Assembly (NCBI GenBank): GCA_046757765.1
Contig: JBHHYX010000001.1
Location: forward strand, 1-54,670
Source of the DNA: Acidobacteriota bacterium
Lineage (GTDB): Bacteria > Acidobacteriota > UBA6911 > RPQK01 > JBHHYX01
Length of the DNA: 54,670 bases
Direction: 5' to 3'
Numbering within the stretch: the stretch's first letter is position 1; every line of letters begins with the position of its first letter. The notes below the pieces were generated by a model. That model made no database searches. It was given only the letters and a program-made list of their open reading frames with translations, and had not been told where the DNA came from. The translations under genes were made by a program, and so were the position numbers. Positions 5,425-41,224 of this stretch are shown here, piece after piece.

Positions 5425-5625
5425 TTAAGACCTTTCCAGGTCTCGAATGCGTTCATGGGTCGGATCGGCGGAAGCGGGCTCCTGGCTCCGGCGCCTGACG
5501 TCACCGGCAATTTGCTCAACGACATCGATCGCCTTCAAGGCGGCTTCGAGCCGGGATCTCCGGGCTTGAAGCTGAGCAAGTTCTTTTTGGATTCTGGTCC
5601 GTAATTCGCTGGTTTCGACATTCAT
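5425..5625 (-). CDS. Small coiled-coil protein, paralog 1 of 3
   Basis: 66 aa, MNVETSELRTRIQKELAQLQARRSRLEAALKAIDVVEQIAGDV... A strong SD (GGAGGA) lies 6-7 nt upstream of the ATG. Paralogous to 5864..6079 and 37004..37384. Confidence 0.7.
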   Translation of the reverse strand: MNVETSELRTRIQKELAQLQARRSRLEAALKAIDVVEQIAGDVRRRSQEPASADPTHERIRDLERS

Positions 5626-5722
5626 CGTTCATCCTCCGAGCCAGTTTGGCTCAATCGGTCGAAATCTGCCCCCAAAATTACTTCTGAGCAGATCCGCTGT
5701 GACAAAACTGTGGCCATCGTCC

Positions 5723-5756
5723 CTAGCCCGCATTTCTCACACCCAATCTACTACGG
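5723..5756 (+). repeat. R2 repeat family, short copy (b)
   Basis: CTAGCCCGCATTTCTCACACCCAATCTACTACGG. Its first ~30 nt are nearly identical to the reverse complement of 6805-6840. Confidence 0.7.
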
Positions 5757-5863
5757 CGGCGGATATGCGCGCGTCTACTGCGGGGCACTCCCCCGTAACG
5801 CCTTTTCGGCGCCTCGCTTCCGGCGCCTCGCCACAACCCCTCAAGGCGTCGAGACGATCACCT

Positions 5864-6079
5864 TCAAGACCGCTCCGGCGAAAGGGTGGCGAGATGCGGT
5901 CCAGCCAACAGAGGGTCTGGGTTGGCACCTGGGCGTTCGGCCTGAGAATCAAAGCTGCGGGCGACTTCTTCCAGGACGTCAAGCGCCTTCAAGCTCTCCT
6001 CCAACCGGGACCGACGTTCCGCTATCCGTTGGATTTCTTTTTCGATCCTACTCTTCAACAGCTCAGTGTTCAGGTTCAT
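5864..6079 (-). CDS. Small coiled-coil protein, paralog 2 of 3
   Basis: ORF 5864..6112 trimmed to the ATG at 6079, which is preceded by AGGA. This gives MNLNTELLKSRIEKEIQRIAERRSRLEESLKALDVLEEVARSF... It ends in ...ERS, like paralog 1. Confidence 0.7.
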   Translation of the reverse strand: MNLNTELLKSRIEKEIQRIAERRSRLEESLKALDVLEEVARSFDSQAERPGANPDPLLAGPHLATLSPERS

Positions 6080-6729
6080 CGAACTCATCCTGTTTACGAA
6101 CCGGGTTAACAAGTCGGCCAGGCCAGGCCGATCCTCGACATGGGCCAGCTGAAATGGTGTCTGACCCAGCGCCTCCTGGCGGCCACCGTCTGCTGGAAGG
6201 AGATGAACCGCCGGGACCCCGGCTCACAGACTCAAGCGGCGGGATCTCCGCCTGATTACTGCTCTGAGAGTGCGGGCCAGCGGTTCACTTGCCTACCTTG
6301 GCCGTGTTCCCGAACTTTCTCCAAACCCAATTGGTCACCCGCGCGTCCCAAGCTCGGATCTCTCCAGCCGATCGTCCCCGCAAGTGATCGAGTCAAGGCC
6401 ACCGTCTTCTCGATTCAGGCAGCTTGCCGCTACCTGTCAGAGAGAGGAGGCAATCCTCATGCCCCTGTGGTCGTCTTTTCTCCTTTCGAGTTTTTGTTCT
6501 CGGTTCAATCTCACTTAGAAAACACGGGTTAGGGGAAAAGTAATTTCGGGAATTCAGCCTTGAATTCAGTCTCATGTCAAGCGGCCTGTAACAGGCTCTG
6601 GGTCGTCTGCTCCACTTTTTGGGTAACAAACTGCACCTGGCGAAAGGTTCATGGCTAACCGCCGCTTGGTTTCTCCGGCCCCCCGGATTTCCCTACCAAG
6701 CGGCGAAGGCGTCGGGCTGACAAGGCGCC

Positions 6730-36100: not shown

Positions 36101-36143
36101 TAACCGACCGCTGGTCGGTCTGAGGCACCGCCTCGCTATGATC

Positions 36144-36166
36144 GAGTGTGAGAAATTCGGGCTAGC
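36144..36166 (-). repeat. R2 repeat family, short copy (e), overlapping the stop codon of 36162..36785
   Basis: The reverse complement reads GCTAGCCCGAATTTCTCACACTC. Confidence 0.6.
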
Positions 36167-37003: not shown

Positions 37004-37384
37004 TCATCCCTCCATCCCAGGTTGACCGACGTCGAGTAGCCGCTCCCCGGAGACCCTTTCCGCCTCTCCGATCCGCCTCAGCAGATTCTTGGGGCTGGTT
37101 CGGGGTCGATGGAAAGCAACTCCTTCGGAGGTTGCATTCTCGACCAGACGCTGCTGCATCCCCGGGCCGAATCGACCTTTGGACACCGCCGCGTCTCTTT
37201 CGGGAAGGGGCGGGAAGGTCGTTGCGATCTCCTCCACCACCCGGAGGACTTTGAGGTTGAGTCGAAGAACGTGTTCTTCCTCTTCCACCTCTTCGAGCCT
37301 CTTGAGAAGCCGCTGCTTGATGGACTGGTTTCGAGAGAGTCGACTTTTGATTGCGTTGCCGATTTGGTCGGTGTTGAGGTTCAT
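37004..37384 (-). CDS. Small coiled-coil protein, paralog 3 of 3 (longer C-terminal tail)
   Basis: MNLNTDQIGNAIKSRLSRNQSIKQRLLKRLEEVEEEEHVLRLNLKVLRVVEEIATTF... The SD GAGGAG lies upstream of the ATG. The gene starts 86 nt downstream of the wza-like gene. Confidence 0.65.
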   Translation of the reverse strand: MNLNTDQIGNAIKSRLSRNQSIKQRLLKRLEEVEEEEHVLRLNLKVLRVVEEIATTFPPLPERDAAVSKGRFGPGMQQRLVENATSEGVAFHRPRTSPKNLLRRIGEAERVSGERLLDVGQPGMEG

Positions 37385-37469: not shown

Positions 37470-38453
37470 CTAGGGTACGACAATGGCTCGAGAAAGCGTG
37501 CGTGGCAGCGCTCCCAACATCGCGTACAGGATGTCTTTGGAAGTGCTGCCGGGAACAAAGATGACGTCATCCGAACGCATCGCGAAATCGGGTTTCTTAC
37601 CGCCCAAAATAGCCTTGATATTGAGCCTAAGTCTTTCGCGCCGATCGCCGTCGCCATAGCGAAGCAAGACGCTTTTTGAGGTCTTTGCGGTTTTCGTAGG
37701 GCCGCCTGCCTGTGCCAGCGCCTGGGTCAGCAATGTTTCTCGCCCTCGCGAGAGCTCATAGGCTCCCGGACGATTCACGTCACCGATCACATAGAACAAC
37801 TTCGCCTCTCGGGGCGGGATCCGAATGACGTCCCCTTTTCGGATGAGGAGGTTGACGGAAGGGTTCCCATTCTCCAGCAATTCCTTTAGACTCACTCGAA
37901 GCCGCTCAGGCTGTGGAGAGGATTGACCCGAACCCGAGGTCCCCGCGACCTTCCTTTGAACGGTGACGTCTTCGGCCGCCCGATCCTCTCGGATTCCACC
38001 CGCCATAGCGATGACATCAACCAACCGCAGTGGCCGCGTCATCTGGTATTGGCCCGGTTGATTGACCATTCCCAGAATGAAGACCGGGTGAGAGCGATAC
38101 TCCCGGATCAATACCGACACCTGAGCGTTGCGGATCAGTTCCTTCCGCTCCAGCGCGGCCCCCACGTTCACTGCGAGCTCAGCTGCCGTGAGCCCGGCAA
38201 CCGCTATCGTTCCCAATAGAGGCACCGCGATTGAACCCGAGCCGCTGACGCGAAGGAGATGATGGAAATCCTCGACTCCGAAGACTAACAACTCGAGCAG
38301 ATCCCCGCTCCCAATCCGATATTCGGAATCTTCTTCGGAGGGCAGGCTCAGCTCGTTGAGACGCTGATTCCAGTTTGGATGCTGGGCGTGGAGCAGGCAT
38401 GCCCAGAGGCTGACAACCAGGATCGGGAAGTAGCGCCTCTCCTTCCTGCTCAT
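37470..38453 (-). CDS. Polysaccharide export protein (Wza/OPX family: Poly_export + SLBB domains)
   Basis: Signal-like N-terminus. The motif YRIGSGDLLELLVFGVEDF...VSGSGSIAVPLLGTIAVAGLTAAEL is typical of the Poly_export domain. Later SLBB-like segments follow (GDVIRIPP, VIGDVNRPGAYEL). Confidence 0.85.
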   Translation of the reverse strand: MSRKERRYFPILVVSLWACLLHAQHPNWNQRLNELSLPSEEDSEYRIGSGDLLELLVFGVEDFHHLLRVSGSGSIAVPLLGTIAVAGLTAAELAVNVGAALERKELIRNAQVSVLIREYRSHPVFILGMVNQPGQYQMTRPLRLVDVIAMAGGIREDRAAEDVTVQRKVAGTSGSGQSSPQPERLRVSLKELLENGNPSVNLLIRKGDVIRIPPREAKLFYVIGDVNRPGAYELSRGRETLLTQALAQAGGPTKTAKTSKSVLLRYGDGDRRERLRLNIKAILGGKKPDFAMRSDDVIFVPGSTSKDILYAMLGALPRTLSRAIVVP

Positions 38454-38672
38454 GACTTTTCCCCCCTCTCCCGGCGGCTCGACAAAGCACTTGGACCGTC
38501 AGGCCCGCGAAGTCGTAAGCCCCGGTCGGACACAGCTTCGCCGCCTCAGTCACAAGAAGTCACGGGTTGCCGTTTCACCCATTTGGGCTGCACCCGGGTC
38601 TTCCGGCTACCCATTCTCAGCGGCGACCGAATCATCCTCTTCCACGCCACAACTCGGCGTGACAAAGTCGGG

Positions 38673-38969
38673 TCACTCCAACTCCGGGCGGCCCGGCTCG
38701 AGCAGGTCTCTGATGGTTTCAAGTTCAGCTCGATTAACCTGGTAATGGCTGCGCAAATCCCAACCCTTGCTCTCTACCACGAAACCGTCCGAAACCAGGA
38801 TGCTCAGAGCCCGCTTGACCCGGGCGACTTCCACACCGATATTGCACTCAGGCAGCCACCACTCAACGATCCCTTCCAGTGTGTCCTGGGCATCTGGATT
38901 CTGGGCCAAATAAGCCAGGACCTTGAGAGCTACGCGCGGTTCATCAGTTGTAGGGAAGGCAGCTGTCAT
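38673..38969 (-). CDS. Small (98-aa) winged-helix-like protein, first gene behind the sigma54 promoter
   Basis: Clean 98-aa ORF. The segment VARVKRALSILVSDGFVVESKG looks like a wHTH recognition helix plus wing. The ATG lies only ~13 nt downstream of the -12 element. Confidence 0.55.
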   Translation of the reverse strand: MTAAFPTTDEPRVALKVLAYLAQNPDAQDTLEGIVEWWLPECNIGVEVARVKRALSILVSDGFVVESKGWDLRSHYQVNRAELETIRDLLEPGRPELE

Positions 38970-38982
38970 AGGTTAGCCTTCG

Positions 38983-38998
38983 GCAAGAACTGTGCCAA
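38983..38998 (-). promoter_or_regulatory. sigma54 (RpoN) -24/-12 promoter
   Basis: The minus strand reads TTGGCACAGTTCTTGCC. This is an exact match to TGGCAC-N5-TTGC with GG-N10-GC spacing. It lies next to a sigma54 enhancer-binding protein gene. Confidence 0.8.
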
Positions 38999-39364: not shown

Positions 39365-40753
39365 TTACTGAGGGGAGGACCGGAAGACTTGCGGATCGAT
39401 CTGGTGCTTCCGGATGAGCTCCCAGAAAGCGCGCCTGTTCTTCCGGGCCGCATCTGCCGCTCGGGTGATGTTCCCTCGGTGGGCCGACAGCAGAGCGTGT
39501 ATGTATTGTCTCTCGAATTGGGCCACGACTTTCGCCTTCGCCGCCTGAAAAGAATCCGTTTTCTGATCGCTGTCGAGAGGGTGGGAAAAGATCATGTCGC
39601 CCGCCCGCAGCACCAGTTTATCGGACAGTACGAGGGCGCGTTCGATGACATGTTCCAGCTCCCTCACGTTGCCAGGCCAGCGGTGAAGCATCAGCTTTTG
39701 CAGGGCCCCGGCCGAAAGATCCGTGGGGGACCTGGAAAACTCTCCCGTGTACTTCTTGAGGAAGTGACGAGCCAATCGGGGAATGTCCTCAATTCGCTTG
39801 CGGAGAGGAGGAAGGACAAAAGGAATGACGTTGAGCCGATAGTAGAGATCTTGGCGCAGCGTACCTTGTTCGACCTTTTGTTCCAGACAACTATTACTGG
39901 CGGCAACGACCCGCACGTCGGACTTCCTCAGCCGCGTGGAACCCAAGAGCCGGTACTCCTTGTCTTGCAGAAAACGCAGCAACTTGGCCTGGACAAGGAG
40001 TGGGGTCGCGTCGATTTCGTCGAGGAAGAGCGTACCGCCGTCGGCGGCGCCAATCAGACCGGGCCGCGCGGACTCGGCTCCGGTAAAAGCCCCTCTTTCG
40101 TGGCCGAATAATTCATTTTCGGCAAGTTCGGCAGGGATTGCGCTGCAGTTAACCGGAACAAACGGCTTTTTTGATCTGGGACTCAGGTAATGAATTGCCC
40201 GGGCAAACAATTCTTTCCCTGTGCCGGTCTCACCTGTAATGAGGACACCGACGTCACATTTGGCCACGATGGGGATCTTTTTCAGCTCCGAAACAAAAAC
40301 AGGACTGCTCCCCACCAGCCGTTGGAGACCCAGCTTCTTCTTCAGACCTTGAACCAGGGTTTCGTCTTCGCTCCTTGGGCGCAGGAGTCTCCACAGCCGA
40401 GGAAGTACGTTCGCTTCATTCAACGGTGGGAGAATGAAATCGGCCGCCCCAAGCTTAAGTAACTCCAGCAGATACGTCGCGCCTCCGTTCTCTGCCGCCA
40501 CCAGTATGGGCAGGGTCGGTGTCGCCGCTAGAAAGAATTGAAGCAGCTCGGCAACCTTGTCTCTCGAACCACTGTCCGGAATCAAAAAGATTGCGTCTGG
40601 AATTGCTCTTCCGAGAACATCCCCGGCAGTGACCTCGCTACTGAGTTGTGCCGCCGACCCCTCAACCGTCTCAACGGCGAGACCGCGAGTGGACTCCAGC
40701 AGCCCGCGCAGGGTGTCGGTCAAAGTGCCTGACGTGCTGAGATTCAGCAACAT
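39365..40753 (-). CDS. sigma54-dependent transcriptional activator (NtrC family) with a degenerate receiver-like N-terminal domain
   Basis: The ORF runs to 40945 and is trimmed to the ATG at 40753. AAA+ Walker A is GETGTGKELFARAIH. The GAFTGA loop is HERGAFTGA. The C-terminal Fis-type HTH is GNITRAADAARKNRRAFWELIRKH. The N-terminal ~120 aa are REC-like, but they lack the N-terminal acidic pair and the conserved Lys (GAADFILPP). Confidence 0.88.
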   Translation of the reverse strand: MLLNLSTSGTLTDTLRGLLESTRGLAVETVEGSAAQLSSEVTAGDVLGRAIPDAIFLIPDSGSRDKVAELLQFFLAATPTLPILVAAENGGATYLLELLKLGAADFILPPLNEANVLPRLWRLLRPRSEDETLVQGLKKKLGLQRLVGSSPVFVSELKKIPIVAKCDVGVLITGETGTGKELFARAIHYLSPRSKKPFVPVNCSAIPAELAENELFGHERGAFTGAESARPGLIGAADGGTLFLDEIDATPLLVQAKLLRFLQDKEYRLLGSTRLRKSDVRVVAASNSCLEQKVEQGTLRQDLYYRLNVIPFVLPPLRKRIEDIPRLARHFLKKYTGEFSRSPTDLSAGALQKLMLHRWPGNVRELEHVIERALVLSDKLVLRAGDMIFSHPLDSDQKTDSFQAAKAKVVAQFERQYIHALLSAHRGNITRAADAARKNRRAFWELIRKHQIDPQVFRSSPQ

Positions 40754-41224
40754 CACTCTGGCCTTTTTCAACTCCGAACCCTTTCTCGCCGCCCAGAACC
40801 TGGACTTGGACAAACTCCCCCGGGGCCGCCCGGTAAGAGACGAGCGGCACCCCCCCCTTTCCTCCAGAACTGGTCTGAACAAGCTGGAGCCTTGGACTCT
40901 GCGGTGAGAGCAGCGACACCTCACCTCCATACCCCTGCCCGTCAACGACGACAGTTGCTTCGAAAAGACACCGATTTTAGGACGAACGAATGATTAGCGG
41001 TTGACATGCTACACGAAGGAGTGGCGAAAAGAAAGCGTTTTCTTGCGCCGACGTGCAAGGGACCGGCACCCATCCCCTTGGAAAGAACACTTCACTTGAG
41101 TTTGACGAAACCCAGTCAACCCGGTAAGCCCCACGCGCCGAGCCCGTCAAGGGAGGCGGCGCCTGCCGCGGAATCTCACTCGGCATTTACTTTTGGCACA
41201 GCAACCTGGAGAATAAGATTTTGT

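Follow-up and report, generated by a model that had tools for sequence, protein, structure and literature searches.

Small paralogues of the N-terminal region of a GGDEF cyclase in an Acidobacteriota genome: a family of predicted coiled-coil proteins and its polysaccharide loci

Catalysis by GGDEF domains requires two such domains to be brought together. MicroProteins are small paralogues, a single domain in size, of the module through which a larger multidomain protein oligomerises; examples are plant LITTLE ZIPPER and the animal Id proteins, which are eukaryotic and act on transcription factors. In bacteria, the restraint of the activator PspF by PspA, and of HrpS by HrpV, are established paradigms for the control of sigma54 activators that have no receiver domain. 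Two described systems bring small proteins or coiled coils together with cyclic di-GMP (c-di-GMP) signalling: dimerisation of the Pseudomonas aeruginosa cyclase SiaD is mediated by its stalk (PMC8457831), and single-motif RsiG proteins are small proteins that form a homodimeric coiled coil binding c-di-GMP (PMC8325347). Here we describe three small genes (P1, P2 and P3) in a 54,670-nucleotide stretch of DNA from an Acidobacteriota bacterium (the window), which is the entire contig C1 of a metagenome-assembled genome (MAG) of 5.6 Mb in 698 contigs. P1, P2 and P3 belong to a family that also forms the N-terminus of a GGDEF cyclase encoded elsewhere in the same genome. The coordinates below are from the open reading frame (ORF) listing and the raw sequence.

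5425..5625, minus strand: P1, 66 aa, short class, MNVETSEL...DLERS
5864..6079, minus strand: P2, 71 aa, short class, MNLNTELL...SPERS
37004..37384, minus strand: P3, 126 aa, long class, MNLNTDQI...

The small-protein family and its fusion to a GGDEF cyclase

The original prediction, made from the letters of the window, had proposed three paralogues here, with N-termini MNVET or MNLNT, a common ...ERS end in P1 and P2, and strong Shine-Dalgarno boxes. The ORFs and all of these features are present. The boxes, each 6–7 nt from its start codon, are GGAGGA, 6 nt 5' of the ATG of P1; AGGA, 7 nt 5' of the ATG of P2; and GAGGAG, 5' of the ATG of P3. P2 probably starts at the ATG at 6079, which gives the family-conserved MNLNT, and not at the TTG at 6112. 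Pairwise, P1 and P2 are 45% identical (E=9e-15) and P2 resembles P3 weakly (E=3e-5), while the comparison of P1 with P3 found no similarity; the three are united by the family profile and by homologues from outside the window. All three score between 1e-22 and 4e-18 against a 10-sequence family profile and fall into register with the remaining 16 sequences of a 19-sequence family alignment. The best outside matches of P1 are P0004, P0006 and P0007 (E about 1e-12).

P1, P2 and P3 are members of an undescribed small-protein family with no match to a known one. No Pfam-A or NCBIfam family scores above its cut-off for any member, and the matches below threshold are generic coiled-coil ones, each in a single member: Nnf1 (22.2 bits against a cut-off of 23.7), Cfap43, Prefoldin and YabA. 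The best match in a profile search of the PDB (E=0.27) is to engineered zippers and fusion helices, and a limited full-text literature search on DUF6982 and diguanylate-cyclase coiled coils returned no description of the family. Homologues in other genomes, which the original prediction had named as a check, were found in one order of Acidobacteriota, where all of the about 20 known members lie. An exhaustive profile search of 1.84 billion representative proteins gave 11 matches at E<=1e-3, three of them the window's own. Word-based and whole-genome searches gave additional members, and pattern scans of genome contigs and of metagenome contigs each added one locus; a word-based search with P2 alone retrieved just P2. 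Among 401 genomes sampled across the phylum, eight were positive, every one from the window's order.

The members begin with a conserved initiator and N-terminal cap, M-x-(L/V/I)-D-(T/L), followed by an amphipathic helix of 40–55 residues with a hydrophobic stripe at heptad-like spacing. The helix carries a conserved polar patch, (K/R)-S-R-L-E-x-R, at its middle and ends in L(E/K)AI(E/D)VVExIA. The tail beyond it is disordered, of low complexity and usually acidic, and in many members includes a C-terminal motif xERIxD(F/L) (THERIRDLERS in P1, SERIHDFKQWA in G011). Cap, heptad-like helix and disordered tail are all found in P1, P2 and P3. P1 is a single long amphipathic helix with a tail ending ...THERIRDLERS. 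By length, the family falls into a short and a long class, the long one being set apart by an insert of exactly 14 residues (two heptads); P3 has this insert, a linker and a second short helix, LLRRIGEAER. From their sequences, none of the three proteins has a signal peptide or a membrane segment.

As judged from sequence comparison, the family is under purifying selection (dN/dS 0.04–0.29 across nine orthologue or paralogue pairs). The AlphaFold2 model of P2, built from the 19-sequence alignment, is a single uninterrupted helix over residues 5–47 at a predicted local distance difference test (pLDDT) of 94–98, with residues 48–71 disordered. The formation of coiled coils by family members is well supported by this model, since an amphipathic helix of 43 residues, standing alone, needs other helices against which to bury its hydrophobic stripe. 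The original description of small coiled-coil proteins of no recognised family thus agrees with the database searches and with the predicted helix. One protein of the representative library, P0005 (281 aa), consists of five tandem repeats of ~57 aa (…LSNLDQLDVIEDLASDF…) and matches the C-terminal half of the family profile (E=1e-7).

When the genome was translated in six frames and searched with a hidden Markov model of the 19-sequence alignment, seven paralogues emerged; the three originally predicted are real members of this larger set. Four of the seven (P1, P2, P3 and the copy on contig C69) lie in polysaccharide export loci and three lie elsewhere. The four outside the window are:

contig C80:7249-8076, minus strand: P0010, a 275-aa cyclase with the family module at its N-terminus
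contig C69:2422-2835: C69cc, a 137-aa family member after wza2, the wza gene of that contig
contig C356:5409-5813: a family paralogue
contig C234: a family paralogue, convergent with a REC-PAS-GGDEF-EAL gene

The cyclase on C80 provides the strongest clue to the family, one absent from the original prediction. P0010 consists of a family module of the long class (~60 residues), a proline-rich linker, a short helix and a complete GGDEF domain, which matches Pfam at E=4.7e-54 and has both a GGEEF motif and an RPGD I-site; P0010 is predicted from these motifs to be an active GGDEF diguanylate cyclase. Its first ~60 residues match the family profile at E=1.8e-9, and residues 1–61 of P3 are 51% identical to its N-terminus (E=2e-13). 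The likeness extends beyond the module: P3, C69cc and residues 1–115 of P0010 align over their full length, as far as the point where the GGDEF domain begins, and all three have a second helix, (L/I)xRR(I/L)xxxER, which in the cyclase runs into the GGDEF domain. Given this end-to-end alignment, which takes in the linker and the beginning of the stalk helix, P3 and C69cc resemble the entire N-terminal part of the cyclase without its enzymatic domain. P1, P2 and P3, unlike P0010, have no GGDEF domain detectable with Pfam; they are paralogous to the N-terminal region of the cyclase and are not cyclases themselves. P1 and P2, of the short class, differ from P0010 further in having neither the 14-residue insert nor the second helix.

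The genome has 10 GGDEF genes detectable with Pfam. Of the six independent placements of family genes, three involve a GGDEF-type gene, as a fusion (C80) or as a neighbour (the C234 copy and P3); by a rough estimate this association is far beyond chance (<1e-4).

Polysaccharide loci and other neighbours of family genes

P3 lies in an operon with a wza-like export gene and a gene for a degenerate ("dead") GGDEF protein, downstream of a sigma54 promoter and of an activator gene:

39365..40945, minus strand: sigma54 enhancer-binding protein, with Sigma54_activat, AAA_lid_14 and HTH_8 matches
38983..38997, minus strand: sigma54 promoter, TGGCACAGTTCTTGC, heading the operon of wza, P3 and the dead-GGDEF gene
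37470..38453, minus strand: wza-like export gene with Poly_export and SLBB domains, directly upstream of P3
36162..36785, minus strand: dead-GGDEF protein, 207 aa, with an N-terminal membrane helix, downstream of P3
L063:8020-8664, L064:1941-2543, L065:7964-8587 and L066:73-843: orthologues of the dead-GGDEF protein

The original prediction had placed the small genes correctly relative to the 1208/1159-aa secreted protein, the wza gene, the GGDEF-like ORF and the sigma54 promoter. The promoter is the sole exact match to TGGCAC-N5-TTGC in the window; about 530 nt (38453-38983) separate it from the start of wza. The wza product has EpsE/pepcterm_export similarity (NCBIfam) and is 49% identical to that of wza2 on C69. 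P3 starts 85 nt past the wza stop, and the interval between the two holds no convincing terminator. The activator gave no Response_reg match, and the PEP-CTERM response-regulator model aligns to it only from model position 50.

The 207-aa dead-GGDEF protein gives weak GGDEF and DgcR matches, as well as a weak NCBIfam match to SiaD (E 0.04). In a tblastn search with the C80 cyclase, GDLVGRYGGEEF aligned with QDIVTYRPERNQY (E=6e-4). The catalytic motif is replaced (RPERNQY where the cyclase has GGEEF) and the RxxD I-site (RAQD) is kept; its R121 and D124, which line up with the I-site of the cyclase, do not vary among five orthologues. A degenerate GGDEF domain with a retained I-site resembles the logic of PelD, and by this analogy the protein is probably a PelD-like c-di-GMP receptor for the exopolysaccharide system. 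The orthologues are 200–250 aa long with one membrane helix, and in several genomes the gene lies between wza (or a Wzc-like P-loop gene) and a priming sugar transferase gene. We considered whether P3 and the dead-GGDEF ORF could be a split or frameshifted copy of the C80 cyclase, a possibility we rejected on finding that the dead-GGDEF orthologues have a membrane helix of their own. The orthologues adjoin wza in relatives that have no P3, so the two genes are separate and P3 is a lineage-specific insertion.

The order of wza followed by a family gene occurs twice in the genome, in two different exopolysaccharide loci. The second locus, on C69 (L087:1365-15823), is of the Wzx/Wzy type and comprises wza2, C69cc, a DegT aminotransferase, a GFO_IDH oxidoreductase, Wzx, Wzy, a FemAB-like protein and Wzc; C69cc starts 70 nt past wza2 and overlaps the next gene. 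The foreign homologue P0004 is encoded between FemAB-like and Wzc genes in a Wzc/FemAB/sulfotransferase locus. Within this genome, the proposed link of the small proteins to polysaccharide loci is well beyond chance, given P3 and C69cc after wza and P1 and P2 at the end of the first locus. Other foreign members lie beside DUF6982, OmpA or outer-membrane barrel genes or G6PD, or beside nothing recognisable. A PilZ-domain protein (L024:5160-6197) is encoded two genes upstream of the family member P0007, and elsewhere on that contig an MshEN-T2SSE ATPase is joined to GFO_IDH domains in an unusual architecture (L024:1-2315).

A family gene lies directly 5' of a DUF6982 (PF22478) gene in two foreign lineages, and a DUF6982 gene lies directly downstream of a sigma54 activator gene in 8 of the 19 regions read in the order:

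L089, L090, L093, L094, L096, L097, L104 and L108 (the last from this genome, C8:24138-26193): DUF6982 after a sigma54 activator gene

The AlphaFold2 model of DUF6982 (pLDDT 85) has two small five-stranded barrels of the Sm/Tudor/SH3 type. A search of the PDB with this model gave no match at E<0.001, and our literature search found no mention of DUF6982. The fold is not that of PilZ, and we discarded the idea of a PilZ-like c-di-GMP receptor. As predicted barrels with no significant PDB match, DUF6982 adds no mechanism. A search of the DNA 5' of other DUF6982 genes and 3' of other wza genes revealed no hidden family gene. DUF6982 genes lie within 10 kb of a wza gene in several genomes (7–9 kb).

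Possible roles of the family helices

The fusion to a cyclase and the placement in export clusters hint at a regulatory docking role. We tentatively favour the explanation, to which we give somewhat less than an even chance, that the family helices are stand-alone zipper or docking modules that pair with the N-terminus of the cyclase and thereby tune or localise c-di-GMP at the polysaccharide machinery. The helix would act as a homo- or hetero-oligomerisation zipper. In the C80 cyclase, the tethered helix would bring two GGDEF domains together, most simply as a dimerisation or docking element, and the free paralogues, being paralogous to this tethered helix, would be its natural partners or competitors. 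P3 and C69cc above all, which match the cyclase from its N-terminus into the beginning of the stalk helix, could pair with it there. Such pairing might dock the cyclase at the polysaccharide machinery, beside the I-site receptor; or it might yield dead, one-headed heterodimers that lower c-di-GMP synthesis. P1 and P2 could join the same network of zippers as additional partners or competitors, and may be co-regulated via the weak sigma54-like promoter described below.

Several observations weigh against this explanation. The GGDEF fusion was found in one MAG only, and the foreign homologues have no GGDEF neighbour in the contexts read. P1 and P2 have no GGDEF neighbour either, and are tied to the locus only by their position and a weak promoter match. 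No known c-di-GMP-binding motif was found in the family. The hydrophobic pattern is irregular, with 4-4 and 3-3 steps, so the oligomeric state is not predictable and a non-helical partner is conceivable. The orthologous loci with wza, the dead-GGDEF gene and the sugar transferase gene have no family gene in five relatives: in G014 and G004 the dead-GGDEF gene follows wza so closely that no other gene would fit between them; in G038 and G028 no family gene flanks the orthologous wza; the family profile found no match in G014, G028 or G038 (within the 401-genome sample); and an earlier three-sequence search found none in G004 or G024. A further 20 wza neighbourhoods in the order contain no family gene, and the majority of foreign homologues are encoded outside polysaccharide loci. 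The co-occurrence with polysaccharide genes that the original prediction anticipated does not extend across the family. Because the orthologous loci and the 20 wza neighbourhoods are without them, the family genes are lineage-specific accessories and not core export machinery.

A different reading, and the main competing one, takes its lead from the sigma54 promoter. The small proteins might control the sigma54 activator of the locus in trans, in the manner of PspA or HrpV, giving feedback from sigma54-expressed small proteins. P3 is inside an operon headed by an exact sigma54 promoter, a candidate sigma54-like promoter precedes P2, and the activator has no detectable receiver domain, which makes control in trans plausible; the resemblance to PspA/PspF and HrpV/HrpS is that of a small helical protein in a sigma54-dependent operon with an activator lacking a functional receiver. 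DUF6982, which follows the family gene in two foreign lineages and an activator gene in 8 of the 19 regions read, gives a second-order link. Yet no member is adjacent or fused to an activator gene in the roughly 15 contexts read, and most foreign homologues have no activator nearby. The family bears no sequence relation to PspA or HrpV: PspA, a much larger protein, is not reported for any member at the Pfam and NCBIfam cut-offs, nor is it among the matches below them. Neither membership of PspA/IM30 nor a conserved pairing with an activator was found. The sole domain fusion is to GGDEF and unrelated to activators, and relatives with the orthologous locus lack the family. On balance we judge control of the activator unlikely. 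It is also conceivable, and in our view distinctly improbable, that the proteins are accessory cytoplasmic subunits or adaptors of the Wza/Wzc machinery that act independently of c-di-GMP, for example by binding the Wzc kinase domain or a glycosyltransferase. Two Wza/Wzc-type loci together contain four of the seven paralogues, of which two come straight after wza, and P0004 is encoded in a foreign locus between a FemAB-like and a Wzc gene, as would be expected of such adaptors. The small proteins have no signal peptide or membrane segment, however, which makes direct contact with outer-membrane Wza unlikely, and the same orthologous loci and 20 wza neighbourhoods without the family, together with the three paralogues and most foreign homologues outside polysaccharide loci, count against adaptors too; the family does not show the conserved presence in orthologous loci that would mark a core component.

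The precedent of single-motif RsiG raises the question of whether the family could itself bind c-di-GMP, as antiparallel coiled-coil dimers that clamp the nucleotide. RsiG proteins of this type, from basal Actinobacteria, are small single-helix anti-sigma factors that act in c-di-GMP signalling as coiled-coil dimers (PMC8325347), and the ties of the family to GGDEF genes in this genome and its mid-helix polar patch would suit such a role. The phylum differs, however, and a scan of 21 members for the RsiG motif, E(X)3S(X)2R(X)3Q(X)3D, gave no match in any of them with either a strict or a loosened regular expression; P1 and P2 also lack an R-x3-R pair, and neither a sigma-factor gene beside P1, P2 or P3 nor a WhiG-type sigma partner was found. 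The absence of the defining motif disfavours RsiG-type binding, and a receptor function for the family seems very unlikely. The least credible reading is that the genes are non-functional leftovers or chance ORFs, either decayed 5' fragments of the cyclase gene or frames made by miniature inverted-repeat transposable elements (MITEs). It is true that P1 and P2 are each flanked by MITE copies, that the 5' third of the C80 cyclase gene is similar to P3, and that relatives have no gene at the position of P3. Against this, the small form is the usual one in several families of the order, and its start and length classes are conserved; the dN/dS values are low, and P1 and P2 differ more at synonymous than at nonsynonymous sites; and the genes have strong Shine-Dalgarno boxes, lie outside repeated DNA and encode a helix predicted with high confidence. 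Leftovers or chance ORFs are largely refuted by this pattern of conservation.

The favoured explanation, pairing with the cyclase, has partial parallels among the described systems. In the SiaC-SiaD system, a sensor-less cyclase needs a coiled-coil stalk to dimerise and a small partner acts on the helical region, as is proposed here (PMC8457831). SiaC, unlike the family, is a mixed alpha/beta protein (six beta-strands, three alpha-helices) and not a coiled coil, is not a paralogue of the cyclase's own helix, and is controlled by phosphorylation (PMC8457831); a comparison of the small proteins with SiaC found no sequence similarity. The likeness to microProteins is that P3 is paralogous to the interaction region of P0010 in the same genome (51% identity over 61 residues). 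The known microProteins differ in being eukaryotic and in targeting transcription factors; the heteromers proposed here are putative. Small coiled-coil regulators and adaptors are already known as a kind; from the sequences, detachable paralogues of a cyclase helix in polysaccharide operons look like a new variant.

A bolder form of the same explanation, which we put forward as speculation with a low probability, would be a network of bacterial microProteins. Its seven paralogous zipper helices, including the one attached to the GGDEF cyclase, would assemble with one another in varied combinations, and zippers encoded in the exopolysaccharide operons would capture or poison the cyclase, creating local c-di-GMP pools at each export machine that are read by the membrane-anchored I-site receptor. 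If true, this would give a second messenger an address at the protein level, written in detachable copies of the helix through which an enzyme itself dimerises. The c-di-GMP field has yet to explain how a messenger that diffuses, and that several cyclases produce, is directed to particular targets, and the genome offers a compact, testable system, with a sensor-less cyclase bearing a tethered zipper, six free copies of the helix (two of them in export operons) and a neighbouring dead-GGDEF protein, probably a receptor, that keeps its I-site. Should the helices pair, the mechanism would be one of simple enzyme recruitment or titration, a bacterial counterpart of the eukaryotic microProteins. 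Independently of mechanism, this is a new small-protein family that annotation pipelines have left unnamed, and a class of genes of 66–126 aa in Acidobacteriota is shown to be real and under selection.

DNA around the tandem pair

The original prediction had called P1 and P2 tandem duplicates. They are indeed paralogous, but the duplication is not recent, and the similar DNA that flanks them consists of copies of a MITE. This element of ~170 bp, with the terminal inverted repeat CTAGCCCGCATTTCTCACACCCAATCTACT, is abundant in the genome: with up to 3 mismatches allowed, a 19-nt core of the repeat occurs at 365 sites of the 5.6-Mb assembly, often paired in inverted orientation ~170 bp apart. Copies in the window, the first three located by a blastn coverage map, and a candidate promoter are:

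5718-5845: MITE copy between P2 and P1, immediately 3' of P2
5225-5365: MITE copy just 3' of P1
6685-6840: MITE copy just 3' of the 1208-aa gene
36140-36162: MITE sequence
6450..6463, minus strand: candidate weak sigma54-type promoter, GGCATGAGGATTGC (GGCAT-N5-TTGC), intergenic, 371 nt upstream of the ATG of P2

The coding parts of P1 and P2 are unique in the genome and lie outside the repeated MITE DNA; beyond them, the DNA similarity of the two tandem units is the MITE. Synonymous sites between P1 and P2 are saturated (proportion of synonymous differences, pS, 0.79 versus 0.39 for nonsynonymous differences, pN), so the duplication is old and both copies have been kept. This saturation, together with the genome-wide occurrence of the MITE, rules out a recent duplication that carried the MITE along.

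Scans for RNA families, promoters and terminators around P1 and P2 gave nothing above chance, and the 600-bp region upstream of P2 (6080-6685) contains no convincing ORF. The sigma54-type element at 6450..6463 within it is a lead, a candidate weak promoter for P2 put forward from its motif; GGCAY-N5-TTGC occurs four times in the window against 1.1 expected, and the other paralogues have no equivalent sigma54-like element upstream. The MITE copies frequently sit immediately 3' of stop codons.

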